DNA from: a virus
Lineage: Duplodnaviria; Heunggongvirae; Uroviricota; Caudoviricetes
IMG/VR virus record: IMGVR_UViG_2671180298_000002
Span: 1 to 20,689 of that record
Length of the DNA: 20,689 bases
Reading direction: 5' to 3' (one strand)
Below, piece by piece: positions 2,856 to 20,689 of the stretch; positions within the stretch are counted from its first letter, which is position 1; the number at the start of each line of letters is the position of its first letter. The notes beneath the pieces were generated by a model that worked only from the letters and a program-made list of their open reading frames with translations, was not told the DNA's origin and did not search any database. Position numbers and translations under genes: made by a program.

Positions 2856-3074
2856 TCAAAGAGAGAGCGCCACCTGTCCTGATTTCATTGGATGCGGCTG
2901 AACCGGATTTGACTCTTTTGGCGTTGCAATCGAACGAACAAAAGTTTCATGGGTAACAAAAGTATGGCTGCAGTTAATGTTCTGGCACTGGTTGTAACGC
3001 TCTTTGGTCAATGAAGATACCTGAAAACTGCTGCGAGTATGGGCGGCACTTCCACACAGTGGGCAAATCATCAT
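2856..3074 (-). CDS. ogr: Ogr/Delta-type zinc-finger late-gene activator
   Basis: 72-aa product MMICPLCGSAAHTRSS...ERYNQCQNINCSHTF with a CxxC...CxxxxC zinc finger, resembling P2 Ogr (MFHCPLCQHAAHARTS...). Start set at the ATG preceded by GGGGAG; the tracked ORF extends further 5'. Confidence 0.85.
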   Translation of the reverse strand: MMICPLCGSAAHTRSSFQVSSLTKERYNQCQNINCSHTFVTHETFVRSIATPKESNPVQPHPMKSGQVALSL

Positions 3075-3164
3075 TTTTCGAGTTCTCCCCATTTTTGCTA
3101 AATTCACAATAATGATACCGCATTATTCCATTTTGCAAACTTAAAAGTTCTCCATTGCGAAGAA

Positions 3165-4265
3165 TCATTCCATTTCGAAATCATCAATCCTCACTTCAAG
3201 CTCCAGACTGGTCGTAAAACCGTTATCCGGGCTGACGGTATGCGTCAGAGTCGTAATGCTCCATTCCGCATCATCTATCGGCTGTTTAAAGCCACTGACT
3301 TTCACTGGCATTTCCGTGTAGAGATCTGCCCGCCCTTCCGCCAGTTGTAGCGAGAATGACGCAACGCCGCGTTGCAGGCGTTCCCACTGCATTTTCGCTG
3401 CCCGTTCAGCGTTGCTCCGGTTGGCATAAGTGCGATTAAGTACCAGCACGTTTTCATCCGTCCCCACCAGGTAATCGCCCTGCTTCGCTTCCGGCTCTTT
3501 CTTCTGCTTCTTAGTCCTGCGCTTACGCTTCACCGTAGTGCTTTCTTTCTTCGCGGGTTCGCGGGTATGCAACCAGCTGGCAATTACCCCCGTGTAAGCT
3601 CCGCGATCTGCCAGGGTAAAGCGGTGACTGTCGCCGTCCTTACGTGTGATAGTAATCACCGGCAGTGGTTTACCGCTGGCGCTTTTGCCCTGTCCCTGCC
3701 GGATGAATAACAGATTGCCATTTTTCACCGATGCAATGGCACCGTACTGGCGCGCCAGCCGCATCAAAAAACTGCCGTCACTCTCATTAGTCTGGTCTAT
3801 ATGCTCCACGGGCTTATCCGACAGGTCTTTACCCAGTGCCATCTTCAGCTTGTGCCGCGCGGCTATTTCCTTCACCACTTCCCCGATGGTGGTGTTATGC
3901 CACGATTTTTCACGGCGGGTATTCAGCGTTTCCCGAAAATCAGCACTTCGCGCCCGGATAGTCAGGCGGTCCGGTGCGCCAGTGTGTTCAATCTCGTCCA
4001 CCGTGAATGCCCCTTTCGGGAAAAGCGGCTGCCCCTTCCAGCCCAGCGCCAGCGTAATGACCGCACCACGGCGCGGCAGCACGATTTTTCCGTCGGCGTC
4101 GTCCAGCTCCAGATCAAGTTGGTCCGCTTCAAAGCCCCGATTGTCCGTCAGCGTCAGACTCATCAGGCGGTTATCCAGCACAGTGGTGATATCCTTCCCC
4201 TCAATACTGATGCTGAATGCGGGAGTTTTGTTTCCTTTGTTAAGCAGTTCAGAGCTGAAATTCAC
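3165..4265 (-). CDS. D: Phage tail protein D (late control gene D family)
   Basis: 366-aa ORF; gene order ogr-D-U-T and size match P2 gpD; overlaps the U stop (ATGA). Confidence 0.88.
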   Translation of the reverse strand: MNFSSELLNKGNKTPAFSISIEGKDITTVLDNRLMSLTLTDNRGFEADQLDLELDDADGKIVLPRRGAVITLALGWKGQPLFPKGAFTVDEIEHTGAPDRLTIRARSADFRETLNTRREKSWHNTTIGEVVKEIAARHKLKMALGKDLSDKPVEHIDQTNESDGSFLMRLARQYGAIASVKNGNLLFIRQGQGKSASGKPLPVITITRKDGDSHRFTLADRGAYTGVIASWLHTREPAKKESTTVKRKRRTKKQKKEPEAKQGDYLVGTDENVLVLNRTYANRSNAERAAKMQWERLQRGVASFSLQLAEGRADLYTEMPVKVSGFKQPIDDAEWSITTLTHTVSPDNGFTTSLELEVRIDDFEME

Positions 4266-4747
4266 GACAGCAGCCCTCCCACCGTTTTACTGATATCGCT
4301 TAAGGCAGACGTTGCCGTGTCCTGCAGATTATTCAGTTGAGTACTGAGATCACCGAACATATCGGACAGGGATTCATCCACCCGTTTTAGCGAAAGGGTG
4401 AACTCAATCCTGCGCGGCATACCGTCGCGGAAAAACTCCGTTTTAGTCTGATTCAGTCCCTCAATCACATACATGCCGTAAATCGTGCCGCTGCCTTCAA
4501 TCAGGGGCCATGCTTTCCCCTGTTCTGCCATCTGCTCCAGTGCCAGCAACGACAGCCTGCCGCCTGTTATCTCCGGCATAAGAACACCGGAAAGCGTCAG
4601 CATGTCGTTTTCCGGTCCCAGAAACTGCGTGGACGGACGACGGTTTACCCGGCTGTTTGCCGCATGTCGCCAGCTGCGTTGATACTGCAGTTCCTGATAC
4701 GGAACGGTGCGCAGCATAAACACGTACAATCCCAGCACCATCATCAT
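4262..4747 (-). CDS. U: Phage tail protein U
   Basis: 161-aa ORF starting MMMVLGLYVFMLRTVPYQELQYQRSWRH, recognised as P2 gpU; translationally coupled to the T stop. Confidence 0.85.
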   Translation of the reverse strand: MMMVLGLYVFMLRTVPYQELQYQRSWRHAANSRVNRRPSTQFLGPENDMLTLSGVLMPEITGGRLSLLALEQMAEQGKAWPLIEGSGTIYGMYVIEGLNQTKTEFFRDGMPRRIEFTLSLKRVDESLSDMFGDLSTQLNNLQDTATSALSDISKTVGGLLS

Positions 4748-5928
4748 GCGTCGTATCCCCCCTGATCGCTGTAGTTACTCCTGGCTTTTGCCTTCAGCCT
4801 GCGTTCACGTTCATCAAGCTGGCGTGCCACCTCCCGCGCAATATCCTGCGCACTTTGTCCTGGCTGCGTCTGAATGATGATCTGCGTCGGTGCCTCAATC
4901 CGTTGAACGAGCGGCACAGTGGCTGCGCGACTCACAATTGCTTCTCCACCTTTCGCGGGAAGTGCCAAAGGGTGCAACGGTGGAAGCTCTGCTGGCGCGG
5001 CAGCAACGCCCATCATTCCGGCAACAACGGCAGCCAGTGCAGCTGTATTTCTCCGGCTGGTCACATTTGCCGGGCCGTTAACAATTTCCGGCCCGTTTTC
5101 ACCGACGATGCCAAACTGCCCACGCGGGATATAGCCGCCGCTGTCATACATCCCCGCAAAGCCATATCCCCATGACGGAAAACCACCCGATGGCATCATC
5201 ACTTTACCGTCTGCATTCACCGTCGCAGGTTGCTGACGCGTCACGCTTTCCGGCAGTTTCGCCTTTGCAGCCTCTTTACTGACAATGCCGAGTTTATCCA
5301 GCAACCAGGAAACGCCAGATTTCAGGGAGTCCAGCGGATGCATAACCATATTCAGCCCTTCCGCCAGTGCCTCCCCGAATCGTCGCCCCATTGCCGCTGC
5401 GCTCTGCAGTTCGGCAGAGGTCGACTTAACGGGCGTCAGCAGATCAGTAAACCAGCCCCAGAGCGCCTGCACTTTGTCGCCAATCCACTGAAACACAGGC
5501 TTAAGTGGTTCGAATGCTGCACTGACGGGACCTGCCGCCGCTTTGAATCCTTCCACCACGCCACCAAGAAATGCGGTGATGGGTTGCCAGTATTTCCAGA
5601 CAACCAGCGCCACGCCCGCCAGTGCAGTAACCACAAGACCTATCGGACTGAGCAGAGCACCTAACAGACCAGATACGGCATACAGGGCAACGCGCAGCAT
5701 CGCCAGTGGACCAGATGCCAGTACTCGCAGCACCGTGCCTGCGGCGACCAGTCCACCGCGCAGTACCGCCAGAGGATTCATAAACATCACAGCAACAGCA
5801 CGTAAACCGGATAATCCAGACCGCAAAAGTGCAACCGGCGCACCTGCTACAGTTTTCATGACATTTCCCGTCAGTGATGCCGTGCGGCGCAAAGATGACA
5901 ACGGTGCAGTAAGTAAACCCGCAACCAC
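4744..5928 (-). pseudogene. T: Tail tape-measure protein T, 5'-truncated C-terminal fragment
   Basis: About 394-aa Gly/Ala-rich ORF immediately upstream of U; P2 gpT is about twice this length; the open frame is closed by a stop at about 5953..5955, some 25 bp from the divergent P start. Confidence 0.6.
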
Positions 5929-5977
5929 ACAAACCGCAGGCGGGGAAAGCCTTCATTCAAGGCTGTAGGTTTGTGCC

Positions 5978-7744
5978 ATGAACACCACACTGACACCCGC
6001 AGATCTCGATCCCCGTCGGCAGGCCATGCTGCTGTACTTTCAGGGATACCGCGTAGCCCGCATTGCTGAAATGCTGGGCGAGAAAGTTGCAACCGTTCAC
6101 AGCTGGAAAAAACGCGACAAGTGGGGTGACTATGGGCCGCTGGATCAGATGCAGCTCACCACCGCCGCACGCTACTGCCAGCTCATTATGAAGGAGCACA
6201 AAGAAGGGAAAGATTTCAAAGAGATTGACCTGCTGGCGCGCCAGTCGGAGCGCCATGCGCGGATCGGCAAGTTTAACAATGGCGGCAACGAAGCCGACTT
6301 AAACCCTAACGTCGCCAACCGCAACAAAGGCCCGCGCCGTCAGCCGGAAAAGAACGTTTTCACCGATGAACAGATTGAGAAGCTGGAAGAAATCTTCCAT
6401 TCCTCCATGTTCAACTACCAGCGCCACTGGTGGGAAGCCGGAAAAACCAACCGCATCCGCAACCTGCTGAAGTCACGCCAGATCGGCGCGACCTTCTATT
6501 TTGCCCGTGAAGCCCTGATTGACGCCCTGCTAACCGGGCGTAACCAGATTTTCCTTTCCGCCAGCAAGGCTCAGGCCCACGTCTTTAAGCAGTACATCAT
6601 CGACTTCGCCAAAGAAGTGGAGGTGGAGCTGAAAGGCGATCCGATGGTGCTTCCTAACGGGGCCACGCTGTACTTCCTCGGCACCAATGCCCGCACGGCC
6701 CAGAGTTACCACGGCAACCTGTATCTGGATGAATATTTCTGGATACCGAAATTCCAGGAGCTGCGCAAAGTGGCTTCCGGTATGGCTATTCACAAAAAAT
6801 GGCGACAAACCTATTTTTCCACGCCATCCAGCCTGACACACAGTGCTTATCCGTTCTGGTCCGGTGCGCTGTTCAACCGAGGGCGCAACAAAGCCGATAA
6901 GGTGGACATCGACCTGTCCCACAGCAATCTGGCCCCCGGCCTGCTGTGCGCAGACGGGCAGTACCGCCAGATAGTCACTGTGGAAGATGCGGTGCGCGGC
7001 GGCTGTAACCTGTTCGACCTCGACCAGTTGCGCATGGAGTACAGCCCGGACGAATACCAGAACCTGCTGATGTGTGAGTTCGTGGACGATCTCGCGTCTG
7101 TGTTCCCACTCAGCGAGCTGCAGGCGTGCATGGTAGACAGTTGGGAAGTCTGGACCGACTTTCATGCACTGGCCCTGCGCCCGTTTGGCTGGCGCGAAGT
7201 GTGGATCGGATATGACCCGGCGAAAGGTACGCAGAACGGCGACAGCGCCGGATGCGTGGTGGTGGCGCCGCCAGCCGTGCCGGGCGGTAAGTTCCGCATT
7301 CTTGAGCGTCACCAGTGGCGCGGAATGGACTTTCGCGCCCAGGCTGACGCCATCAAAAAACTGACCGAACAGTACAACGTGACCTATATCGGTATCGACT
7401 CAACCGGCGTTGGTCACGGGGTTTACGAGAACGTGAAAGCGTTTTTTCCTGCCGTCCGGGAGTTTGTCTACAACCCCAACGTTAAAAACGCCCTGGTACT
7501 CAAGGCCTACGACATTATCAGCCACCGCCGTCTGGAGTTTGACGCCGGACACACCGACATAGCGCAGTCCTTTATGGCAATCCGTCGCGCCACCACCGCC
7601 AGTGGCAACCGCCCGACCTATGAAGCCAGCCGCAGCGAAGAAGCCAGCCACGCCGATCTGGCCTGGGCAACGATGCACGCACTGTTTAACGAACCGCTGC
7701 AGGGCGAATCCGCCAATACCAGCAATATTGTGGAGATTTTTTGA
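5978..7744 (+). CDS. P: Terminase large (ATPase) subunit, P2 gpP-like
   Basis: 588-aa ORF; size and position next to portal Q fit P2 gpP; 3' end overlaps the Q start. Confidence 0.9.
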   Translation: MNTTLTPADLDPRRQAMLLYFQGYRVARIAEMLGEKVATVHSWKKRDKWGDYGPLDQMQLTTAARYCQLIMKEHKEGKDFKEIDLLARQSERHARIGKFNNGGNEADLNPNVANRNKGPRRQPEKNVFTDEQIEKLEEIFHSSMFNYQRHWWEAGKTNRIRNLLKSRQIGATFYFAREALIDALLTGRNQIFLSASKAQAHVFKQYIIDFAKEVEVELKGDPMVLPNGATLYFLGTNARTAQSYHGNLYLDEYFWIPKFQELRKVASGMAIHKKWRQTYFSTPSSLTHSAYPFWSGALFNRGRNKADKVDIDLSHSNLAPGLLCADGQYRQIVTVEDAVRGGCNLFDLDQLRMEYSPDEYQNLLMCEFVDDLASVFPLSELQACMVDSWEVWTDFHALALRPFGWREVWIGYDPAKGTQNGDSAGCVVVAPPAVPGGKFRILERHQWRGMDFRAQADAIKKLTEQYNVTYIGIDSTGVGHGVYENVKAFFPAVREFVYNPNVKNALVLKAYDIISHRRLEFDAGHTDIAQSFMAIRRATTASGNRPTYEASRSEEASHADLAWATMHALFNEPLQGESANTSNIVEIF

Positions 7745-8790
7745 TGGGAAAGAGTAAGAAGAACCGCGCTGCGGCGACGAAACAGATCCAGCTTAAAAGT
7801 CAAACTACAGCCGAAGCATTCAGCTTCGGCGATCCCGTTCCTGTTCTGGACCGCCGAGAACTGCTGGATTATGTGGAATGCGTACAGATGGATCGCTGGT
7901 ATGAGCCGCCCGTCAGTTTTGACGGACTGGCACGAACCTTCCGCGCCGCTGTGCATCACAGCTCCCCCATCAGTGTTAAGCGTGACATTATCAGCAGTAC
8001 CTATATTCCGCATCGTCTTCTCAGTCAGCAGGCATTTACCCGTTTTGTGCAGGACTATCTGGTTTTTGGTAACGGCTACCTGGAGAAGCGCACGAACCGT
8101 TTCGGTGAAGTTATTTCGCTGGAGCCTGCACTGGCAAAATACACCCGGCGCGGGCTTGACCTTGAAACATACTGGTTTGTGCAATACGGTATGTCCACCC
8201 AGCCATATCAGTTCACGAAAGGCAGCATCTTTCATCTGATGGAACCGGACATCAACCAAGAAATCTACGGCCTGCCCGGTTATCTTTCTGCTATTCCATC
8301 CGCCCTGCTCAACGAGTCTGCCACGCTGTTCCGCCGCAAGTATTACATTAACGGCAGTCATGCAGGCTTCATCATGTACATGACCGACGCCGCGCAGAAC
8401 CAGGAGGATGTAAACAACCTCCGCAACGCGATGAAAAGTGCCAAAGGTCCTGGTAACTTCCGTAACCTATTTATGTACTCGCCAAACGGCAAAAAGGACG
8501 GGCTTCAGATCATCCCGTTGTCAGAAGTCGCGGCGAAGGATGAGTTTTTGAATATCAAGAACGTCAGCCGTGATGACATGATGGCGGCACACCGTGTGCC
8601 GCCACAAATGATGGGTATTATGCCGAATAATGTTGGGGGGTTTGGGGATGTAGAAAAGGCAAGCCGTGTCTTTGTCCGCAACGAGTTGATACCTCTGCAG
8701 AAACGCCTACAGGAACTTAACAACTGGTTGGGCGATGAAGTTATACGTTTCGAGCCGTACACTTTAGATATTCAGAATGAAAAGAAATAA
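7741..8790 (+). CDS. Q: Portal protein, P2 gpQ-like
   Basis: 349-aa ORF directly after the terminase; size matches P2 gpQ. Confidence 0.88.
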   Translation: MMGKSKKNRAAATKQIQLKSQTTAEAFSFGDPVPVLDRRELLDYVECVQMDRWYEPPVSFDGLARTFRAAVHHSSPISVKRDIISSTYIPHRLLSQQAFTRFVQDYLVFGNGYLEKRTNRFGEVISLEPALAKYTRRGLDLETYWFVQYGMSTQPYQFTKGSIFHLMEPDINQEIYGLPGYLSAIPSALLNESATLFRRKYYINGSHAGFIMYMTDAAQNQEDVNNLRNAMKSAKGPGNFRNLFMYSPNGKKDGLQIIPLSEVAAKDEFLNIKNVSRDDMMAAHRVPPQMMGIMPNNVGGFGDVEKASRVFVRNELIPLQKRLQELNNWLGDEVIRFEPYTLDIQNEKK

Positions 8791-8844: not shown

Positions 8845-9114
8845 TTACCAATTTCTTTTTTCGGAGTTTAGCCAATCACCGCATGGATAATATCTTGACG
8901 CCCATTCACCTTGTAAACGAGCTACAAACAGAATATCGTTACTATCGACCTTGGCTTGGAGTCCGTCACGCAGTTGAGTTGCGGTCAGCGTTGTATCTAC
9001 TAACCAAAATGATTCAAGATATTTACAGTATGTAAATTGCTTTAGATAGTCAAAAACTTCATCGTAGTTTCTTCCCGGAGCCTTCAAGTCATAGGTTATA
9101 CAATAAATAGCCAT
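8845..9114 (-). CDS. Hypothetical small alpha/beta protein, possibly Cas2/VapD-like fold
   Basis: 89-aa ORF; GGAG 8 nt upstream of the ATG; starts 3 nt after the Zn-ribbon ORF stop; AT-rich; pattern MAIYCITYDL...YLESFWLV...ILFVARL resembles the Cas2 layout (recognition by eye, unverified). Confidence 0.6.
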   Translation of the reverse strand: MAIYCITYDLKAPGRNYDEVFDYLKQFTYCKYLESFWLVDTTLTATQLRDGLQAKVDSNDILFVARLQGEWASRYYPCGDWLNSEKRNW

Positions 9115-9117
9115 TCT

Positions 9118-9300
9118 CTAAGCTCCGCATTTTTTATCATTTGGGGAACATCTTAACCTGCGACATTTGCGGCAATACGATTGAGGGATCAGCCGCTCTC
9201 CTTCCATAGTTCTAAAACCAAACACTTCTTCAATTTTGTTCAAATCACCACTTGCAATAACCCCACAGCAGGGGCAGACAGCCTCAATTTGAAATGCCAT
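9118..9300 (-). CDS. Hypothetical small zinc-ribbon protein
   Basis: 60-aa product MAFQIEAVCPCCG...YCRKCRRLRC with Cys pairs; GGAG 6 nt upstream of the ATG at 9300; the tracked ORF extends to a TTG at 9363. Confidence 0.55.
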   Translation of the reverse strand: MAFQIEAVCPCCGVIASGDLNKIEEVFGFRTMEGERLIPQSYCRKCRRLRCSPNDKKCGA

Positions 9301-9463
9301 GTCTATCTCCATTCCACATGTTGAATGTAGGGTAATACTTCCTTTCAAGCAAAAATGAGACAAGGATCTTAAAACCTAATTTAAACTTGCTTGCGCGCGC
9401 TCGTATCCCCGCCACGCCTGCCCGCTTTATGTAGTGGTTTTCATGCAGATGCATGCTCTACGC

Positions 9464-9492
9464 AAAAGCCCGCCAGTTCTGGCGGGCTTTTG
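9464..9492. terminator. Hairpin separating the three-gene and two-gene cargo modules
   Basis: AAA-AGCCCGCCAG-tt-CTGGCGGGCT-TTT; GC-rich 9-10 bp stem with A/T flanks on both sides. Confidence 0.6.
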
Positions 9493-9554
9493 CAAAAACG
9501 ATCCTCAAACGATCATGCGATTTCATGCAGCATAGACATGCAAAGTAGAAACTG

Positions 9555-9971
9555 CTATTTAACGTCCGGCGTTTGCGCTGTGGGGGATACTTTTCCATCT
9601 AGCGTATTTACAATTGAGAGGGGGTAAATTCCCATTTCAATTCCACAGATCACGTCGTAACGAGCCTGCGCTTTCTCTCGCATTTCTGGAGAAACAGGGG
9701 ACGATGGTGCATTTAAAACTGCTTCGGCTTGCTTCTTCAGAGCCTTCAACCGCCTTTTCAGTTTGATTTCTTGCGGATCAACAGCATAAATCGTCCATGC
9801 AAAAGTAAAAACTTCGCTTAAAAGAATTGACACCATCGGTATTGAAGCAATGTAAAGGTCTTTCCATGTTGGATCTGTAATGAAGCTAGCCAGCTTTATT
9901 AGGAAAAGGCCTACACCGCCGCCACCTGTAACACCGACTGCTTTACCGCTTGTTTTCTTTTGTTCAGGCAT
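9555..9971 (-). CDS. Hypothetical small membrane protein (two predicted TM helices), third gene of the cargo operon
   Basis: About 138 aa from the ATG at 9971 (tracked ORF starts at a GTG at 9995); Gly-rich stretch then hydrophobic helices (GVGLFLIKLASFI; IASIPMVSILLSEVFTFAWTIYAV); overlaps the upstream gene by 8 nt. Confidence 0.6.
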   Translation of the reverse strand: MPEQKKTSGKAVGVTGGGGVGLFLIKLASFITDPTWKDLYIASIPMVSILLSEVFTFAWTIYAVDPQEIKLKRRLKALKKQAEAVLNAPSSPVSPEMREKAQARYDVICGIEMGIYPLSIVNTLDGKVSPTAQTPDVK

Positions 9972-10227
9972 GAGAGGCTGACTCCTTCCTCTCACGCTTA
10001 TTTTTCTCTGCTATATCATCGATGAGCTTTATTAACTCATCATCATTGTTTATATAAATATTTGTTTTATAGACATTTTTGTTTGCATCAGTATAAGTGA
10101 TAGAAACTTTTGTTTCGACAATAACTCGATCGAGCAGGCTACGTATAGCCACTCTAGCACCTATAAATATAGCTGGAGCTGCAACAAGCAGCCCCAACCA
10201 TCCTAACACACTAATATCTATAGACAT
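9964..10227 (-). CDS. Hypothetical single-pass membrane protein, second gene of the cargo operon
   Basis: 87 aa; N-terminal TM helix (VLGWLGLLVAAPAIFIGARVAI) then a charged soluble tail; ATG lies 2 nt after the upstream stop. Confidence 0.6.
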   Translation of the reverse strand: MSIDISVLGWLGLLVAAPAIFIGARVAIRSLLDRVIVETKVSITYTDANKNVYKTNIYINNDDELIKLIDDIAEKNKRERKESASHA

Positions 10228-10229
10228 TT

Positions 10230-11123
10230 TTAATCCGCATCAGGTTTTATTTTTCTATCTTTGGCGGCAAAGTGTCGACCCACTTTGATGATCGATAACT
10301 TTTCGTCTACCTGGCCACCGGAATCTTTCACAATTTTCTTCATCTTCACAGCAAACAATTCGCCAAAAATTTTGGGGGCGTCTGGTCCAGTAACAAGCTT
10401 GATGAACTCATTATCTTCCATTCTGACATTGCGCTTTTCACCGCCAAACTCAACACGCCAGCCACTTTTTTTGTCAGTATGCGCCGAAACGAATGTCACG
10501 GTTGTTTCAAATTCGTCAACTTCTTCTTTGGTTTCAAAGAGAACTTTTGGCGACTTAAACTCTTCTGCCTCATCTTTATGAATTTTGAGGATTTCTTTCT
10601 TAGAGGTGCGCGATTTTTTTACCACAAAATTGTCGATACCATCTTGTAACAGAGGCTGTCTGACAAACGCGTCAACAGCCTTACGAATCTCTGGGGCATT
10701 AACGATTTTTTCGACATCTTCAGAGCAAACAATCTCTTCACCATCGACTTTCAGCTTAACTTTGTCACTACCGTTAGCTTTCTCGACTATGTCGATCTTA
10801 CGCCCGTTAAGCTTCTTGAGAACCTCTAAAACTGTAGCACCGCCAACGGCTAAAGGAATGGCTGACAAACCTAAAATTTGTACAACATCTTTAGCATTAG
10901 CTAGATGTTGTACAACCTCAATATCAAACCCAAAGGAACCGGCTATCAATTCAGCGTCAACGTTAACTTCAATGTCTCGCCCTCCGTTTACAATCTCATT
11001 TGCAGAGTAGATAGCCTCACCTAGCCCCTGCAAACTTTTCGCAAACGAAAGAATATCCATCTTATGATCGTCGAGAGCTTTGCCTTGATACACAATACTT
11101 ACTGATTGAGTCTTATCCGCCAT
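10230..11123 (-). CDS. Hypothetical charged protein (about 297 aa), first gene of the cargo operon
   Basis: Long AT-rich ORF; first ATG at 11123 (tracked ORF starts at a TTG at 11144); K/E/D-rich with one internal hydrophobic stretch; no motif I recognise. Confidence 0.65.
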   Translation of the reverse strand: MADKTQSVSIVYQGKALDDHKMDILSFAKSLQGLGEAIYSANEIVNGGRDIEVNVDAELIAGSFGFDIEVVQHLANAKDVVQILGLSAIPLAVGGATVLEVLKKLNGRKIDIVEKANGSDKVKLKVDGEEIVCSEDVEKIVNAPEIRKAVDAFVRQPLLQDGIDNFVVKKSRTSKKEILKIHKDEAEEFKSPKVLFETKEEVDEFETTVTFVSAHTDKKSGWRVEFGGEKRNVRMEDNEFIKLVTGPDAPKIFGELFAVKMKKIVKDSGGQVDEKLSIIKVGRHFAAKDRKIKPDAD

Positions 11124-11259
11124 TGAGTTCAGATCCGTTGCCAATAAAATGCGCGCGATTTTACGCCCATCACTATGTTTAATCTATCTATTAATCATTT
11201 ATCCCTCTAGCTGTCTACTATCGGACTCAAAAAACATGACTCATTACAAACGAAACCTA

Positions 11260-11493
11260 TCAATGCAGCCAGCTGTCGTCTTCCCACACCTTCTGCATAA
11301 TTTTCATCACTTGCTTCCTTTCTTCGTCCAGTTGCAGTCCGGTCAGTTCCACACCGTTAGAGCTACCTTTGCGAATGCGAATTACCGTTTTGGGATACAG
11401 GGGGCGCAGATTGCGGTAAAGCTCGGATTCAAGGGCGTCCAGGGTAGACTGGCTAATCTTCTGCTCTTTATCGATCATTATTTCAATGCGCAT
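11260..11493 (-). CDS. DinI-family protein (Tum-like SOS-inducible antirepressor candidate)
   Basis: 77-aa product MRIEIMIDKEQKISQSTLDALESELYRNL...KIMQKVWEDDSWLH aligns by eye with E. coli DinI (MRIEVTIAK...AIDALAGELSRRI...ILQETWESADDWF); GAGGTG 5 nt upstream of the ATG. Confidence 0.82.
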   Translation of the reverse strand: MRIEIMIDKEQKISQSTLDALESELYRNLRPLYPKTVIRIRKGSSNGVELTGLQLDEERKQVMKIMQKVWEDDSWLH

Positions 11494-11503
11494 AAAAGTC
11501 ACC

Positions 11504-11692
11504 TCAGCTGATGACATCCATTGAGCGGTTGTATTCGTGGGTTCTGATTTTTGCCATGAGTTCATCTGTCAGTTCAGAAACCCACTGCAGGGCCAGCCCC
11601 TTCTCTTCATCACTACACTCACTAGCCGCTACAAGCTTAAGAAAAAAATCAATGCGCTGGAGCTTCAAAGACTCCAAAAAATAGTCCTGCAT
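11504..11692 (-). CDS. Hypothetical small protein, first gene of the LexA-controlled operon
   Basis: 62 aa from the ATG at 11692, preceded by AGGAGG; a LexA box lies about 45 bp upstream; the longer tracked ORF would run through the LexA box. Confidence 0.55.
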   Translation of the reverse strand: MQDYFLESLKLQRIDFFLKLVAASECSDEEKGLALQWVSELTDELMAKIRTHEYNRSMDVIS

Positions 11693-11735
11693 CTTTCCTC
11701 CTATGACACCACAAGCAATACTGTACGCATAACCA

Positions 11736-11751
11736 CTGTTTATATTTACAG
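11736..11751 (-). promoter_or_regulatory. LexA (SOS) box
   Basis: CTGTTTATATTTACAG, a CTG-N10-CAG palindromic match to the TACTGTATATATATACAGTA consensus, embedded in an AT-rich promoter-like region upstream of the small ORF and DinI-like gene. Confidence 0.75.
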
Positions 11752-11845
11752 TATATAATAATCTTACTGATGTAAAACGTTTTTTTACGTTCATCAGTCT
11801 GATATACCTGGTATTATTAAGAGCACGAATTGTTAACCCGCGTAA

Positions 11846-14260
11846 TTAATACAGGTTCCGCCACTTATCATCTTCCTGCAAACGCTGGTTCCGATAGAAA
11901 ATACGCAGGCCTGCTCCTGACGGAATACTGCCGCCGCGAAGGAGTAAATCGACCTCTTTCTCGCTGCCATCAAATCCCCTGGACTTCAGTTCATACACGA
12001 GCTGCAGTCGCTGATGGTCTGTAATTCGCTGTTTGTAGTCTTTACGCCGTTTCGGTTTCACCAGGCGTAACCTTGCTGCCAGTTCCCGGCGCTCTTTTTT
12101 GCTCATACTGTGCAGGTAATCGTGCAACTCCTTGTCATCCATGCGGGTGATATCCGTTCTGGTATCTCCATCAGCTGATTTGTCTTTCCCTTGTTGGTAC
12201 AAATTTTCAGCAAGGGGACAGTTATTGCCACGAGTCCAAGGGGCGCAAGCGCCCTGGTCGGCTGCCGCCTCCTGAACGTCAACGGCTTTACGAACCATTT
12301 TCCACTTCACTGCATGAGTGCAGATCTTGCCCTCTGCAATGGGTGACCAGATGCCATAAATACGAATGCCGTGATCGCCATAGGCGGTCGGCTCTTCGTT
12401 GATTTCATAAGCGGTTCTGATGAGGTGATATTTACGGGGAACCAGTACGCCGCCCTGCTTCATGATGTAGGTGGCAAAACAACCAGCATCAGCAGCAGCC
12501 AGAATGGCATCAAGACGCGGGTTATCCAGTACCGGCGCACCTGCTTTTTTGTCACCCTGTTGCCTTGCCGCCTGACCAGCCAGCAAGCGAAGTTCACGGT
12601 AAGCCTGACGCCCCGGAATACCAAAGAAGCGGAATTGCTGAACACGATGCAGAGACGCCCAGGCATTCACGTATTCAGCGTTATCACGCAGAGATTTACC
12701 CGTTTCCTTGCTGATCTCGCCAGCCAGACCACGACCGTCAATGTTCTTACTGATATATTTCGCGATGTAGCTTGTCGGCGTTCCTTTGCGCGGGTTAATC
12801 AACTCAGACTTAAAGCGCGGCCCAGTGTTATTGCCCAGCTCCTCGCGGTCTTCACGGATGGCAAACTTACGCAGTAATGCAGTGATGGCACGGCGGTCTT
12901 TTTTGCGCATGAAACACAACAGGTGCCAGTGAACTGTGCCATCATGATGCGGCTCAGCCACCCGCACGCCATACCAGCGCAACCCGGCTTTGTGCATCGC
13001 CTTACGAAATGCAGCAAACATGCCGACCAGATAATCGCTGCTTTGTCTTACCGTCGCGTTTGTCCAGGTCGGGTTTGGTCTGCCGTTATTTAGCGTGGAA
13101 TGGAAACGCGACGGACAGGTGATAGTGTAGAAAACGGCGCAGTCACCGCGCATTTCCGCGATAAGCTCCAGACCTTTAACACAGGCCATCATCTCATTGC
13201 GGCGATGCGCAGGGTTGCTGCTGCTGGCGTTTACCACATCCTCCATGTCCAGCGTGTCGCCGTCTTCGTTCACCAGTTCATGAGAACGGAAAAACTCCAG
13301 CGACTTACGGCGCTGCTCACGTTTATGCATCACGGCTTCATAGCTGACATAAGGAGATGCTTTTTTGCTGACCAGGCAAACAGCGCGCAACTGCTCTTCC
13401 CGCCATTCGCAACGCATCTTCCATAATTTCCGATACCACCAGTCGGCGCACAACATACGCGCCAGCGAACCCGGAATGAGTTCATACGGCACGGGTTTAC
13501 GGCGGTTTCTTTTCCGACGGAGTTGCTCAAACGCAGGTGGGATGACATCCAGACGCAGGGTTTCCGCTGCCACCTTTTCCCATGTCTTGCGGATTTCTTC
13601 TGGCTTAACGTCATCGGTGGCATACAAATCACCACAAGCTGCATCAAGGCACATACTCATATGCGCAGCTACCAAGGTGGACAGGCGTTTCACCTGATCC
13701 TGACTCATTTCAGGCAGGATCAGCAGGCCGTCCAGCCCTTCATGGCTTGCCATAAAGCGAAAAGATGCAGATAGCTGACTGTCGCGTACATGCTCCAGTC
13801 GTTCCAGACATGGCTTAATCGTCTCACGTAAATAGCGGGAATAAGCCTTTGGCCTGCCCAGGCTGCTGAAGTATTCAATACGTTGCATCAGCGGCTTGCT
13901 GATATGGGAAGGCTGGGCGTTGACGTCCGCCAGAATGACCATGTCTGAATTAAAACGCTGCTGCTCATGCGCCAGCTTTGCCCGGCTAATGAGCTTATCC
14001 TGCTCCATTTCGCGCTGGACAGGATCACGTGATTCATTAAAGAAATAACGCTCCCAGACCTGATCACTCAGTGCCTCGCGGCGCAACTGTTCCTGCTCGT
14101 TATCGGCAGCGTACAGAGTGATCAGGTTTGAAAGCGTAGAAACCGGCGCAACTTCCGCCGGGTCCAGATAAGGGTTAATGGCCTTTTTCGGGCTGTTCCA
14201 TGAGAATGCTGCGGCAGCCTCGTTAAAGCCGCAGCAGTTGTTCATATCGGCATGACTCAT
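11846..14260 (-). CDS. A: Replication initiation protein A (rolling-circle HUH endonuclease, P2 gpA-like)
   Basis: 804-aa ORF with an HUH-type motif (VHWHLLCF) and a paired-tyrosine motif (SYIAKYISK) as in P2 gpA. Confidence 0.9.
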
Positions 14261-15114
14261 GCACGTACTCCGTACACGGCAGAACTATCCACGCCACGCG
14301 AATAATCAAATCCCATCCAGCAGCGCGGCCCGGAAACAGCAATGATTTCTGTTGCTGATTTACCCTCGCCAGCTGCCACACCGATGCTGCGTTTTACCTT
14401 GATATAGTGGTGAGTAAAATTGCGATACAGCGAACGGATCAGGGATGTGTCACTGTTAGAAACAATGACCGGATGTCCTTCTGATGACCGATGTTCAAGA
14501 ACGGATGCCAGGTGATACTGGTCATCTTCAGTGAAACCATCAGTGTGATAGCCGGAAAACGTACCGTCATATGGCGGATCGCAATACACCACATCTCCCG
14601 CCTTCAACATCGCCAGCGTTTCATCAAAGCTGGCGCAGATAAACGTTGCTCGCTGGGCTTTTTCTGCAAATGTGCGAAGTTCTTTTTCAGGGAAATACGG
14701 ATTTTTATAATTACCGTAGGGAATGTTGAAATGCCCGCTCTTGTTATAGCGACATAAACCACGGTAACCGTGACGATTGAGATACAGGAAATATACCGCT
14801 TTCATGAAATCAGTAATTTCAGTTGAGCAGTTAAACTCCTGCCTTATGTTGTAATAAGCCACCTCCCTGTTTGCGATCTCAAATAAAACTCTGGCGCGAG
14901 ATATAAACGATTCACAATCAGCGGCAACCTTTTTATAGAGGTTGATTAAATCAGGATTAATATCCGCAACCAGATAGCTGGGATAATCCGTTTCCATCAT
15001 CACAGCACAGGAACCCGCGAAAGGTTCAACCAGTCGCGGGCCAGCAGGAAGGTATTTTTTCAGTTCTGGCATAATGGCGGTTTTATTTCCCGCCCATTTC
15101 AGGATGGTGCTCAT
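14257..15114 (-). CDS. Phage Dam-family DNA N6-adenine methyltransferase
   Basis: 285 aa from the ATG at 15114; ILKWAGNK and DPPY motifs; ATGA overlaps with the TraR-like gene upstream and gpA downstream. Confidence 0.85.
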
Positions 15115-16943: not shown

Positions 16944-17165
16944 CTAGTTGAATACAACATTGCAATCAGTAAGTGCATCAACGGTAAGAGCAGCAAGGTT
17001 GATCATTACCTTTTCTCTTTTCTTGTCTTTACGAAGACGATGCCGAGGAATGCGACCATCCGCCAACATATCGTTGATTGTGTCGATTGAAAGACCAGTA
17101 AGTTCGCTATAACGCTCGATTGTGACGTGTGGCGTATTCAGAGTTATTGAAATGTTAGGGGTCAT
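16944..17165 (-). CDS. Cox/Apl-like small DNA-binding protein (excision/switch regulator candidate)
   Basis: 73 aa from the ATG at 17165; first gene of the rightward early operon, divergent from cI; basic helix-turn-helix-like segment ([22 protein letters not shown]). Confidence 0.55.
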
Positions 17166-17215
17166 GATGCAACATCTCCTATTGGCTTGTGGTGAGCCTG
17201 TAGTAATCGTGACAA

Positions 17216-17231
17216 GTACCCAATTGGGTAC
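17216..17231. promoter_or_regulatory. Perfect 16-bp palindrome in the cI/cox switch region (candidate operator)
   Basis: GTACCCAATTGGGTAC between the divergent cox-like and cI genes; the half-site AAGTACCC recurs at 17273..17280. Confidence 0.5.
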
Positions 17232-17260
17232 AAAACTGATACTAGGATCGCAAAAGAGAT

Positions 17261-17857
17261 ATGTCAACATCAAAGTACCCAAGTGAGATCAAAATAAATC
17301 CCAATAAAGGTGGTAAGGCTGCGATTGAGCGATTAGTCGAAGCCTATGGCTTTACGACACGACAGGCTTTAGCTGATCACTTGGAAGTATCAAAAAGCAC
17401 ACTAGCGAACAGGTATTTGCGGGATACATTTCCTGCTGACTGGATAATCCAATGTGCTCTTGAAACAGGAACCTCCCTCAAATGGTTAACTACCGGACAA
17501 GGCCTTAAGCAAAGCTCGCTGACAGCAGCTACAGAAGAGCTTGTTAAGTTTCGCCTTGCCGCAGGCAAAATGATTGAAGACGGTTCATATGTCTTCGATT
17601 CATCATTTCTTCCTGCAAACCTTTCATCACCAATTGTTGTTCAGGATGGACTCGTCACATACATTTGTGATCAAAAATTTTCTGAAGTACTTGATGGAAA
17701 CTGGTTAATCAATATCGACGGAACCTATTCCATTCGAAAAATCACAAGGCTTCCTAAAGGAATGATTAAAATTACAACAGCAGAGAATAGCTTTGAATGT
17801 GCATTTTCTGATATTGAAGTGGTTGCTTGTATAAGAAGTACAATAGTCTCGAATTAA
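17261..17857 (+). CDS. cI: 186-type CI immunity repressor
   Basis: 198-aa ORF; N-terminal region (AIERLVEAYGFTTRQALADHLEVSKSTLANRYLRD...ALETGTSLKWLTTGQG) resembles the phage 186 CI N-domain; divergent from the cox-like gene. Confidence 0.82.
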   Translation: MSTSKYPSEIKINPNKGGKAAIERLVEAYGFTTRQALADHLEVSKSTLANRYLRDTFPADWIIQCALETGTSLKWLTTGQGLKQSSLTAATEELVKFRLAAGKMIEDGSYVFDSSFLPANLSSPIVVQDGLVTYICDQKFSEVLDGNWLINIDGTYSIRKITRLPKGMIKITTAENSFECAFSDIEVVACIRSTIVSN

Positions 17858-17877
17858 TATAGTAAAAGGATTTTAAA

Positions 17878-19554
17878 ATGAATTCATTTGCCATCGTTAT
17901 ACTCTTATTAGCATTTCTCGCCCCTGTTCTAGCTGTAATATTATTTAAACAAAGTAAAAAACACAAAGCGGCTATAGATAACCTGACAGCTAACAACATA
18001 GCCCTTTCTAACCAACTGATTGAAAATCAAGAAAAACTAGCACAGACCGTACGAGAATTATCAGAGCTTGAAGGGCGAGCAGCACCATTGTGGCAATACG
18101 AAGAATTGCACAGCGCAGTAATGGATGCAGAGAATAAGATAAAAAATGCGGACTCAATAGCCAAGCAAAAAATAGATGAAGCCCAAATTAAGGCGGCTAA
18201 AACAGTAAACGAAGCAAATTATCAAGCTCAGATGACAATAAGCAACGCTAATAGCGAAGCTATAGCAATCACCAAAGACGCTCGCGATGCACGCCTGAAA
18301 GCCAAAGAACGTCTTGATAATGCTAATAATAAAGCAAATGAGCTAATCTCAAATGCTAATGACAATGCAGTAAAAATTATTTCTGATGCAGAAGAAAGAG
18401 CAAAGGAGATTGCTGGTTCAGCATATGAAGCTAAAGAGTTTGCAGAAAAATATGAAGCAGTTGCAAAATCAATGAAAAATAAAATTGAAGGTTATGGTGA
18501 TGAATGGATCATCCCTAACCGTAGTGTACTTGATGAGCTGGCAGAAAATTATGAATTTACAGATGCAGGCAAGGAATTACAAAAAGCCAGAGAGTTAACC
18601 AAATCATTAATAAAAACTAATAAAGCTGCTTCGTGTAATTATGTTGAGCAAAACAGGCGTAATACTGCCATAAACTTTGTTTTGGATGCCTTCAATGGAA
18701 GAGTTGACAGTATTTTATCAAAAGTCAAACACAACAATTTTGGAAAACTTTCCCAAGAAATAAAAGATGCATTTCAACTAGTAAATTACAATGGCTCTGC
18801 CTTTAGGTCCGCAAAAATAAGTGACATCTATCTTCAGGCAAGACTCAACGAGCTAAAATGGGGTGTAGCAGTTAATGAAATTATGCTCGAAGAAAAAGAA
18901 GAGCAAAGAAGGATTAAAGAACAGCTTCGTGAAGAGGAAAGAGCTCGTAGAGAATATGAAAAAGCGATAAAAGAAGCTGAAAAAGAAGAAAAAGCTATTC
19001 AGCAAGCTATAAATAAAGCAACGAAAGAACTTATGCTTGCAAATGAAGAACAACGCTTAGCTTTAGAGCAAAAAATAGCTGAACTACAGTTAAAATATGA
19101 AGAAGCTGAAGCTAAAAATCAACGAGCTATTTCTATGGCTCAACAAACCAGATCAGGCCACGTCTATATCATTAGTAATATTGGTTCATTTGGCGAAGAT
19201 GTATATAAAATTGGAATGACACGCCGCCTTGAACCACTTGATCGTGTTCGTGAACTCGGAGATGCTAGTGTTCCTTTTTCGTTCGATGTTCATGCGATGA
19301 TTTATAGTGATGATGCACCATCATTAGAAAACCATCTGCATAAAGTTTTCAACGAAAAGCAGGTCAATAAAATTAACTCACGAAAAGAGTTTTTTAACGT
19401 AAATTTAAAAGAAATCAAATCAGTTATTGAAGACATGAACATCAACGCCCACTGGACAATGTTTGCAGAGGCGAAAGAATATAGAGAGTCTCTAGCTATT
19501 GAGCAGGAGCGCAAAGCAGCCACTTCCGCCAACGATGAACTACATGTTGCTTAG
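17878..19554 (+). CDS. Membrane-anchored coiled-coil protein with C-terminal T5orf172 (GIY-YIG-like) domain; DUF4041-type architecture
   Basis: 558 aa; N-terminal TM helix (FAIVILLLAFLAPVLAVILF), long coiled-coil with NAN/EA repeats, C-terminal GHVYIISN...YKIGMTRR...LENHLHKVF...KEFF motif; AAGGA 7 nt upstream; 20 bp after the cI stop. Confidence 0.85.
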   Translation: MNSFAIVILLLAFLAPVLAVILFKQSKKHKAAIDNLTANNIALSNQLIENQEKLAQTVRELSELEGRAAPLWQYEELHSAVMDAENKIKNADSIAKQKIDEAQIKAAKTVNEANYQAQMTISNANSEAIAITKDARDARLKAKERLDNANNKANELISNANDNAVKIISDAEERAKEIAGSAYEAKEFAEKYEAVAKSMKNKIEGYGDEWIIPNRSVLDELAENYEFTDAGKELQKARELTKSLIKTNKAASCNYVEQNRRNTAINFVLDAFNGRVDSILSKVKHNNFGKLSQEIKDAFQLVNYNGSAFRSAKISDIYLQARLNELKWGVAVNEIMLEEKEEQRRIKEQLREEERARREYEKAIKEAEKEEKAIQQAINKATKELMLANEEQRLALEQKIAELQLKYEEAEAKNQRAISMAQQTRSGHVYIISNIGSFGEDVYKIGMTRRLEPLDRVRELGDASVPFSFDVHAMIYSDDAPSLENHLHKVFNEKQVNKINSRKEFFNVNLKEIKSVIEDMNINAHWTMFAEAKEYRESLAIEQERKAATSANDELHVA

Positions 19555-19612
19555 CAATGTATGTTTCATAGTAATCACACATTGATTACTGGTTACATAT
19601 ACAGTTAAATTT

Positions 19613-19636
19613 AGCCCTCTGATATGAGGGCTTTTT
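19613..19636 (+). terminator. Hairpin plus T-tract immediately upstream of the int start codon
   Basis: AGCCCTC-tgatat-GAGGGCT followed by TTTT, then the int ATG at 19637. Confidence 0.6.
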
Positions 19637-20689
19637 ATGGCAGTACGAAAACTAACCACAGGGAAATGGCTTTGCGAATGTTACCCCGCCGGACGAAGTG
19701 GGCGTCGTGTGCGTAAACAATTCGCCACCAAAGGCGAAGCACTGGCTTTTGAGCGCCACACGATGGAAGAAACCGAAGCAAAGCCCTGGCTGGGTGAATC
19801 AGTGGATCGTCGAACACTGAAAGACGTGGTTGAGCTATGGTTCAAACTACATGGTAAATCTCTGACAGCTGGGCAGCATGTCTATGACAAATTGCTGTTG
19901 ATGGTTGACGCTCTGGGCAATCCTCTTGCAACCGATCTCACCTCTAAAATGTTTGCCCACTATCGAGATAAACGCCTGACAGGCGAGATCTACTTCAGCG
20001 AGAAATGGAAGAAAGGAGCAAGCCCGGTCACCATTAACCTGGAGCAAAGCTATCTAAGTAGTGTTTTTAGCGAACTATCCCGTCTGGGCGAATGGTCGTA
20101 TCCGAACCCACTGGAGAACATGCGAAAATTCACCATCGCAGAAAAAGAGATGGCATGGCTTACCCATGAGCAGATTGTTGAATTGCTGGCTGATTGCAAA
20201 CGTCAGGACCCAATTCTGGCACTGGTAGTTAAGATATGCTTAAGCACAGGCGCACGCTGGCGTGAAGCCGTAAATCTTACCCGCTCACAGGTGACCAAAT
20301 ACCGAATTACCTTTGTCAGAACGAAGGGGAAGAAAAACAGAAGCATCCCTATCAGTAAAGAGCTTTACGAAGAGATCATGGCGCTTGATGGGTTCAATTT
20401 CTTCACAGACTGCTATTTTCAATTTTTATCCGTGATGGAAAAAACGTCTATCGTGCTCCCTCGCGGTCAACTCACACACGTTCTGCGCCATACGTTTGCG
20501 GCGCACTTCATGATGTCGGGTGGAAACATTCTGGCCTTACAAAAAATTCTCGGACACCACGATATAAAAATGACTATGCGTTACGCACATCTGGCACCGG
20601 ATCATCTAGAAACGGCGCTCCGTTTCAATCCTCTGGCAACGCTGCCAAGTGGCGACAAAGTGGCGGCAGCGGTTGGCATTACCCCGTAA
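19637..20689 (+). CDS. int: Tyrosine integrase (P2 Int-like)
   Basis: 350-aa ORF; N-terminus MAVRKLTTGKW...GRRVRKQF parallels P2 Int (MAIKKLDDGRY...GKRIRRKF); C-terminal LSTGARWREA...HVLRHTFA...MRYAHLAP recombinase motifs with the catalytic Tyr. Confidence 0.92.
   Translation: MAVRKLTTGKWLCECYPAGRSGRRVRKQFATKGEALAFERHTMEETEAKPWLGESVDRRTLKDVVELWFKLHGKSLTAGQHVYDKLLLMVDALGNPLATDLTSKMFAHYRDKRLTGEIYFSEKWKKGASPVTINLEQSYLSSVFSELSRLGEWSYPNPLENMRKFTIAEKEMAWLTHEQIVELLADCKRQDPILALVVKICLSTGARWREAVNLTRSQVTKYRITFVRTKGKKNRSIPISKELYEEIMALDGFNFFTDCYFQFLSVMEKTSIVLPRGQLTHVLRHTFAAHFMMSGGNILALQKILGHHDIKMTMRYAHLAPDHLETALRFNPLATLPSGDKVAAAVGITP
20650..20671. repeat. Candidate att core, int-proximal prophage end (inside the int 3' end)
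   Basis: TGGCGACAAAGTGGCGGCAGCG; 21/22 identical to 2834..2855. Confidence 0.6.

Follow-up and report, generated by a model that had tools for sequence, protein, structure and literature searches.

The gene described here lies in a 20,689-nucleotide (nt) stretch of DNA, referred to below as the window (positions 1 to 20,689 of the IMG/VR virus record IMGVR_UViG_2671180298_000002), which is a segment of the Escherichia coli chromosome identical to that of strain CPE35. The window starts with grxA, ybjM, ybjL and the gene of the RybB small RNA (sRNA) and continues into a 186-like (Peduoviridae) prophage that ends with the integrase gene, int, next to rcdA. An open reading frame (ORF) at 17878-19554 (+), located between the immunity repressor gene cI and int, starts with ATG and encodes a protein of 558 amino acids (aa), WP_021574262.1. 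RefSeq names this protein 'DUF4041 domain-containing protein' or 'SNIPE associated domain-containing protein', and by PADLOC profile and BLASTP comparison it is assigned to the SNIPE (PD-lambda-1) family. Two minus-strand ORFs within the gene (18853-19053 and 19302-19532) are without support and were set aside. At the gathering thresholds of Rfam no RNA family is found in or near the gene, the RybB gene at 2700-2778 being the only match in the window.

The protein begins with a predicted transmembrane (TM) anchor. Residues 4-22 (17887-17943, +) are the sole strongly hydrophobic segment of the chain (Kyte-Doolittle 19-residue mean 3.16), in agreement with the N-terminal TM helix claimed by an earlier note that had been made on this DNA from the letters alone. 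Three uncharged residues precede the segment and the basic cluster KQSKKHK follows it directly, so that the positive-inside rule predicts an N-out/C-in orientation, with a single-pass anchor and most of the chain cytoplasmic. Of 117 full-length close representatives, 100 likewise start with a hydrophobic segment. The anchor is followed by a helical stalk, presumably an adaptor or spacer (aa 24-204; 17947-18489, +), a globular DUF4041 region (aa 205-315; 18490-18822, +), a long, charged helical linker (aa 316-425; 18823-19152, +) and a nuclease domain of the T5orf172/MUG113 (GIY-YIG) type (aa 426-525; 19153-19452, +).

The earlier note had proposed a profile scan for DUF4041 and T5orf172 and had read a T5orf172/MUG113 signature in the C-terminal part. 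In Pfam all three profiles exceed their curated cut-offs: DUF4041 (PF13250) matches aa 267-322 with 46.6 bits against a cut-off of 27 (E=3e-12), T5orf172 matches aa 427-520 with 63.3 bits against 20, and MUG113 matches aa 443-520 with 72.8 bits against 22.3. PF13250 is now called 'SNIPE' in Pfam, and 'PF13250:SNIPE' is the precomputed label on the orthologue from Klebsiella. The motifs that had been quoted for the C-terminal domain are indeed found there, with GHVYIISN at residue 427, YKIGMT at 443, the arginine pair RR at 449-450, SLENHLH at 482 and KEFF at 503. The codon of the predicted catalytic glutamate, E484, occupies positions 19327-19329 (+).

The structure was modelled with AlphaFold2 (AF2). 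The model, computed with an alignment of 80 diverse homologues, has a mean predicted local distance difference test (pLDDT) score of 86.2; a run on a shallow alignment, made up of 16 close orthologues, reached a mean of 53 and was discarded. The modelled protein is elongated; the TM segment with the stalk comes first, then the globular DUF4041 region and the linker, after which aa 427-519 form a beta-beta-alpha-beta-alpha domain. A very long helix, aa 2-179, comprises the TM segment and most of the stalk and is continued by a second helix, aa 181-204. The compact helical domain that follows, approximately aa 214-306, has pLDDT values mostly of 92-98, which fall to 84 and 76 in the stretch aa 211-230, and the linker is formed by two long helices, aa 316-387 and 390-425. 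The description of about 250 residues of coiled coil with NAN/EA repeats given in the earlier note holds as far as the helical nature and the repeats are concerned, but the helical material is in two parts (aa 24-204 and 316-425) that are split by the globular DUF4041 region.

The repeats of the stalk are 11-residue (hendecad) repeats. When aa 80-200 are compared with themselves, the identity peaks at a lag of 11 residues (28%), other lags up to 20 giving at most 14%; lesser peaks occur at lags of 25 and 36. Hydrophobicity recurs with a period of 3.63 residues. Hendecad stalks, for example that of subunit b of the ATP synthase, have this pattern, and the present protein is probably dimeric through its stalk. 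In NCBIfam the stalk has weak matches to DivIVA, to SMC and to stalk subunits of F-type and V-type ATPases (ATP-synthase-b and V-ATPase-E). These were rejected as indications of function, since their scores do not come near the curated cut-offs and arise from coiled-coil composition. Coiled-coil similarity has likewise led to wrong names for the protein, which is entered as 'chromosome segregation ATPase' or 'vacuolar-type H+-ATPase subunit H' in phage records ON470620.1 and OM835953.1 and among the names assigned by the Joint Genome Institute.

On sequence grounds the protein clearly belongs to the SNIPE (PD-lambda-1) family. The PADLOC PD-Lambda-1 model PDLC03976 matches it with E=1.7e-120 and 401 bits (aa 105-550 against positions 35-481 of a 491-position profile), and a second model for the same system, PDLC03977, matches with E=7.9e-117, the two matches spanning aa 105-551. 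The characterised SNIPE protein scores 658 bits on the first model. Its sequence was taken from phage PhiR26_1, where it is annotated 'PD-lambda-1' (comparison locus L002, 4071-5570; RCP76574.1 of strain ECOR26). In BLASTP the two proteins share 50% identity over 293 aa (aa 265-555 against SNIPE 196-487, E=5e-77). The identity rises towards the C-terminus: it is 25% for the Pfam DUF4041 core, 47% for the linker and 75% for the nuclease domain. E414, the catalytic residue of SNIPE, aligns with E484, and the Tyr, Tyr and Arg-Arg positions are kept. Fifteen residues, Y430, S433, G436, G439, G446, T448, R449, R450, E459, P466, F467, F469, E484, N497 and F506, are invariant in the 80 diverse homologues. 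The family is large, with 3369 clusters (at 50% identity) at E<=1e-3 and 1409 at E<=1e-30, and its members are spread over many unrelated phages and bacterial phyla.

A different kind of evidence comes from the orthologues. Klebsiella, Citrobacter, Salmonella and Enterobacter have proteins of about 82-85% amino acid identity. In the comparison with the Klebsiella orthologue the proportion of nonsynonymous differences (pN) is 0.098 and that of synonymous differences (pS) is 0.775, which corresponds to purifying selection with saturated synonymous sites. The stalk evolves fastest (pN 0.158, versus 0.055-0.061 in the DUF4041 region, the linker and the nuclease domain). Given the first PADLOC E-value and the purifying selection, what is observed here is far beyond chance.

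The earlier note could name no characterised system to which the gene might be related. Such a system exists (PMC9519451; PMC13190303). PD-lambda-1 was found by a functional selection in E. coli ECOR26 as a protein of 500 aa, RCP76574.1, with a DUF4041 domain at residues 197-252 and a T5orf172 domain at residues 357-448 (Vassallo 2022, PMC9519451), and was renamed SNIPE once its mechanism had been solved (Saxton et al., Nature 2026, PMC13190303). The latter work describes a direct, non-abortive defence, in which phage DNA is cut during injection and the infected cell survives. SNIPE is uniformly distributed at the membrane, its N-terminus being periplasmic according to PhoA/LacZ fusions. Injected 32P-labelled lambda DNA is shredded in a manner that depends on E414, and the E414A substitution abolishes defence. 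A variant without the TM segment is highly toxic, binds the nucleoid and causes double-strand breaks. DNA is bound by the DUF4041 domain, which also crosslinks to a tape measure protein; mutations in this domain tune tape measure protein binding, and one of them, W257R, greatly raises both the defence against phage Bas14 and the binding to the tape measure protein of that phage. SNIPE is active against siphoviruses and against no myovirus or podovirus that was tested, and it leaves the induction of a resident prophage unaffected (all PMC13190303). The kind of protein is thus already known: PADLOC, the current Pfam and RefSeq label the gene, and the mechanism of the family was published in 2026. 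Neither the accession of the present protein nor RCP76574 was found in the supplements of the SNIPE paper (a set of 474 homologues).

The present protein and SNIPE of ECOR26 have the same plan, in which a single N-terminal TM segment is followed by a helical N-region, DUF4041, a helical linker and the T5orf172/GIY-YIG nuclease, and both are single-gene, prophage-borne, AT-rich cargo. The carriers differ. SNIPE resides in the nin region of a lambdoid prophage, between ren and rha, whereas the present gene is located between cI and int of a 186-like myovirus prophage. The N-terminal regions differ as well. That of the present protein is 264 aa long as compared to 195 aa, about 70 aa longer, and contains the hendecad repeats, and BLASTP finds no similarity of aa 1-264 to aa 1-195 of SNIPE, the part associated with ManYZ. 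Among SNIPE homologues the N-terminus is reported to be hypervariable and of varying length, with one TM segment in 59% of them, and the commonest N-terminal matches of the TM-bearing homologues include 'ATP synthase subunit b' and DivIVA (PMC13190303). The weak ATP synthase b and DivIVA matches of the present stalk follow the same pattern, so that its divergence is of the expected kind, and homology of the N-terminus does not define the family. An association with ManYZ cannot be assumed for the present protein since this homology is absent. The residue that matches W257 of SNIPE is a lysine, K327 (codon 18856-18858), and in this it resembles the gain-of-function variant W257R; that matching E223 is a serine, S292. 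With an unrelated N-region and a DUF4041 core of 25% identity, neither the host partner nor the target range of SNIPE is transferable to the present protein.

The genes around the SNIPE homologue form what appears to be the lysogenic operon of the prophage. The cI gene (17261-17857, +) encodes an immunity repressor of the 186 type, 198 aa, WP_000107903.1 ('phage repressor protein CI'), with Pfam matches to Phage_CI_repr (8e-32) and Phage_CI_C (3.5e-27). Its stop codon, TAA at 17855-17857, is followed by a spacer of 20 nt that contains a ribosome-binding site, AAAGGA (17865-17870, +), 7 nt before the ATG of the next gene; the earlier note had described the 20-nt distance and a ribosome-binding site. 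The gene for the tyrosine integrase (19637-20689, +; 350 aa, WP_000290937.1; Pfam Int_N and Phage_integrase) is the last of the presumed operon, and in strain CPE35 rcdA is located just beyond it. The SNIPE homologue is AT-rich, unlike int, as had been noted: it has a guanine plus cytosine (GC) content of 36.9% (27% at third codon positions), compared with 48.9% for int and 48.4% for the window. The cI gene is likewise AT-rich, with 40.2% GC.

In the reference annotation of phage 186 the promoter pL is followed by cI and int, which abut, then by orf69 and a terminator, all in one lysogenic operon. A candidate pL in the window, TTGAAA-N17-CAACAT (17148-17176, +), aligns position for position with pL of 186 (TTGCGA-N17-CATGAT) around the start codon of apl. 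It was found by this alignment; a scan for consensus promoters detected no plus-strand promoter upstream of cI because the -10 element of pL is weak. Facing it is a strong pR-like lytic promoter, TTGACA-N17-TAGTAT (17239-17267, -), found by the promoter scan with 10 of 12 consensus matches, and this arrangement fits the face-to-face pR and pL of 186. An operator-like palindrome, GTACCCAATTGGGTAC (17216-17231), is located just downstream of the pR-like promoter; it belongs to a repeat family, D1, of which a second, partial copy is present at 17273-17294. The gene is situated between cI and int on one strand with the pL counterpart upstream, and the terminator and promoter scans find nothing terminator-like or promoter-like in the gap that separates it from cI. 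The simplest reading is therefore that the gene is co-transcribed with the repressor, most likely in every lysogen, and pL would drive cI, the SNIPE homologue and int.

Between the gene and int there is a conserved leader of about 80 bp (19559-19636, +), which an alignment of six loci shows to be common to these prophages regardless of their cargo. It contains the likely ribosome-binding site of int and a hairpin with a T-run, AGCCCTC-N6-GAGGGCT (19613-19636), found by the terminator scan and ending at the int ATG. The leader RNA has a folding energy of -16.7 kcal/mol (z=-3.1), and the stem of the hairpin is kept throughout the six loci, with different bases in L006 and L007. A 10-bp inverted repeat with the consensus ATGTATGATT..AATCATACAT is also part of the leader and is degenerate in the window. 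Phage 186 has no such leader, as cI and int abut there. Across 1135 genomes bearing int the homology breaks at about 19538-19579 of the window, and the leader marks the right edge of a cargo slot. It may be a terminator or attenuator of the pL transcript, or a mask of the int ribosome-binding site.

The gene is present in 164 of 5426 complete E. coli genomes (about 3%), always together with this cI and this int. The cI allele is found in 163-171 genomes, and the same int (at least 90% identity) in most of the 1135, of which the gene is in 164 only. In the Klebsiella loci L009-L012 the layout of cI (198 aa), gene (558 aa) and int is the same, and the spacer again measures 20 nt. The amino acid identity of the E. 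coli and Klebsiella proteins is 85.4% for CI, 83.9% for the SNIPE homologue and 90.3% for Int. These comparisons indicate that cI and the gene have co-diverged as one module. The earlier note had called the gene inserted between cI and int. It is located there, but a recent insertion into the cI-int junction is rejected by the co-divergence with cI, by the saturated synonymous sites and by the nearly one-to-one co-occurrence of the two genes.

Relatives with the same int carry other genes in the slot at the same chromosomal site. The alternative contents are Old (PADLOC 776 bits), a KAP NTPase of the candidate system PDC-S20, an AriA/Old-like AAA ATPase of 660 aa, and an ORF of 63 aa alone; they occupy L004:3237-5006, L005:3550-5001, L014:2519-4501 and L006:4683-4874. 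Every type of cargo has its own cI allele, and the identities of cI between the types are 27-51%, the CI proteins of L004 and L014 being 311-312 aa long. Cargo and immunity type thus appear to be linked, and the cI-int interval of the 186-like lysogenic operon can be regarded as a defence-cargo slot that is tied to the immunity type. If this is true, each cI allele travels with its own defence gene, and a lysogen would inherit its immunity type along with its exclusion spectrum, as a co-evolving module. Variable, AT-rich slots are also known from the defence cargo of P2/186-like prophages (P2 Old, Tin and Fun), whose hotspots have been described (Rousset et al. 2022, PMC9122126; preprint 10.64898/2026.02.27.708500). 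The present slot differs from these in its location in the lysogenic operon, and it is neither the classical portal-gpA hotspot nor the Z/fun hotspot.

The pL counterpart, the gap without a terminator between cI and the gene, and the relationship to SNIPE make a lysogen-expressed defence gene, as suggested in the earlier note, the best-supported reading of the sequence. By analogy with the characterised system the protein is most likely a SNIPE-family membrane nuclease that is expressed in the lysogen and cuts the DNA of superinfecting phages at the inner membrane; its targets would most probably be phages of the siphovirus type. What can be inferred of its topology in the membrane, its co-transcription with cI, its nuclease activity and its phenotype and targets in defence would combine as follows. 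In every lysogen transcription from pL would cover both the repressor gene and this gene, providing a prophage-borne defence against superinfection. The protein, of which only a tiny N-terminal end would be periplasmic, would by analogy with SNIPE reside in the membrane at all times and be auto-inhibited there. On injection of a phage genome the DUF4041 region would engage both the tape-measure-protein conduit and the entering DNA, and the nuclease would then shred this DNA. The infection would be stopped without killing of the host, and the chromosome, the resident prophage and its induction would remain unharmed.

The position directly behind cI had led the earlier note to an analogy with lambda rexAB. 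The likeness is positional only: in both cases a defence gene, presumably expressed in the lysogen, is located immediately downstream of the immunity repressor gene. RexAB consists of two proteins, acts abortively and depolarises the membrane. It has no sequence or domain relation to the present protein, and SNIPE-type defence is direct rather than Rex-like. The analogy nevertheless points to an abortive type of action, in which infection would cleave or displace the TM anchor and release the nuclease onto the host chromosome, so that the cell dies. The toxicity of anchorless SNIPE indicates that the domains are capable of killing the host, and the stalk of the present protein is different from that of SNIPE and longer. 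Such an action is nonetheless quite unlikely, since the characterised member of the family, whose DUF4041, linker and nuclease regions are conserved in the present protein, defends directly and leaves the cells alive, and since the sequence gives no hint of a release mechanism. The family member could instead be silent or inactive here, either unexpressed from pL or ineffective as an allele and carried passively in a decaying prophage. The prophage of the window is indeed without head, lysis and most tail genes, and the -10 element of pL is weak and escaped the consensus scan. Published assays by others on two homologues from Streptococcus thermophilus, 98.5% identical, found one inactive and the other giving more than 3 logs of protection, which is a caution against transferring activity to the present protein. 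The ORF, however, is intact and 99.9-100% identical to the copies in full-length prophages, purifying selection on it is strong, all catalytic residues are kept, and the ribosome-binding site and the 20-nt spacing are conserved across genera, so that silence or inactivity is improbable, even if it is, by a narrow margin, the most credible of the alternatives considered here.

The tight linkage of the gene to one cI immunity type, with 163-164 genomes for each of the two, its place in the lysogenic operon and an N-terminal adaptor unlike that of the lambda-targeting SNIPE would also suit a role centred on the phage itself, namely a narrow exclusion of P2/186-like phages or P4-like satellites, or a part in the prophage's own DNA transactions. 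This is the least probable explanation of all: the absence of protection against the tested myoviruses and of any effect on prophage induction in the case of SNIPE, the general defence genes (Old, KAP NTPase) in the same slot of relatives, and the occurrence of SNIPE homologues in many unrelated phages and bacterial phyla all argue against it. Even taken together, the three alternatives are unlikely compared with a membrane nuclease directed against superinfecting phages.

The membrane nuclease reading leaves room for a target range different from that of SNIPE. An open hypothesis in the SNIPE paper holds that phage specificity is set by the hypervariable N-terminal region, acting as an adaptor (PMC13190303). 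It is conceivable, though doubtful, that the ATP-synthase-b-like stalk docks the nuclease at another entry route of the inner membrane, or at another distance from the membrane, and so gives the protein a distinct target range. If so, its targets might be, for example, siphoviruses independent of ManYZ or conceivably phages with contractile tails. With a nuclease domain 75% identical to that of SNIPE, an entirely different and longer stalk, and Lys at the W257 position, the protein is a natural variant for testing the adaptor hypothesis. The discussion of the same paper groups SNIPE with Zorya, Kiwa and membrane-acting superinfection-exclusion proteins as systems that act at the inner membrane on genome entry (PMC13190303). 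These are unrelated proteins with a different sensing logic, and the PADLOC scan of the present protein finds, outside PD-Lambda-1, no homology to membrane-acting systems and only a weak coiled-coil match to LmuB.

The prophage in the window is defective. In the region 2856-8790 a tape-measure pseudogene (4744-5922) without its N-terminus comes after ogr, gpD and gpU and abuts the genes of the terminase ATPase (5978-7744) and the portal protein. Since the pseudogene abuts the terminase gene, one internal deletion removed the remaining tail, lysis and head genes. This layout is matched to 100% by strain CPE35 only; at least 80% of the 12-kb query is covered in one further genome, and full-length relatives exist, for example in AR_0085. 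At the left junction of prophage and chromosome the RybB sRNA gene (2700-2778; Rfam 105 bits) is located between ybjL and ogr, and the 3' end of rybB, or a position adjoining it, is probably the attachment site of the prophage.

The classical P2 portal-gpA hotspot of the remnant (window 8845-11800) has 39-45% GC and contains 4-5 small uncharacterised ORFs. One of these, 10230-11144 (-), of 297-304 aa, matches the PADLOC candidate system PDC-S42 (E=7.8e-44); in Pfam the neighbouring ORFs 9964-10227, 9555-9995 and 8845-9114 have no match. The remnant may, to judge from the PADLOC match, carry a second defence candidate in this hotspot. A Dam-like orphan N6-adenine methyltransferase gene (14257-15114; Pfam MethyltransfD12 2.7e-75, PADLOC oMTase 1.6e-110) adjoins the replication gene A, and its product could protect the phage DNA from restriction. 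Relatives possess a further small slot for cargo, located between int and the attachment site by rcdA (L007:6246-7474 and L015:5799-6551). It is occupied by a Panacea-domain protein together with a hypothetical protein in strain AH04 and by a DUF2971 protein of the PADLOC system PDC-S31 in another strain, and it fits the 'integrase-att' minor hotspot described in preprint 10.64898/2026.02.27.708500.

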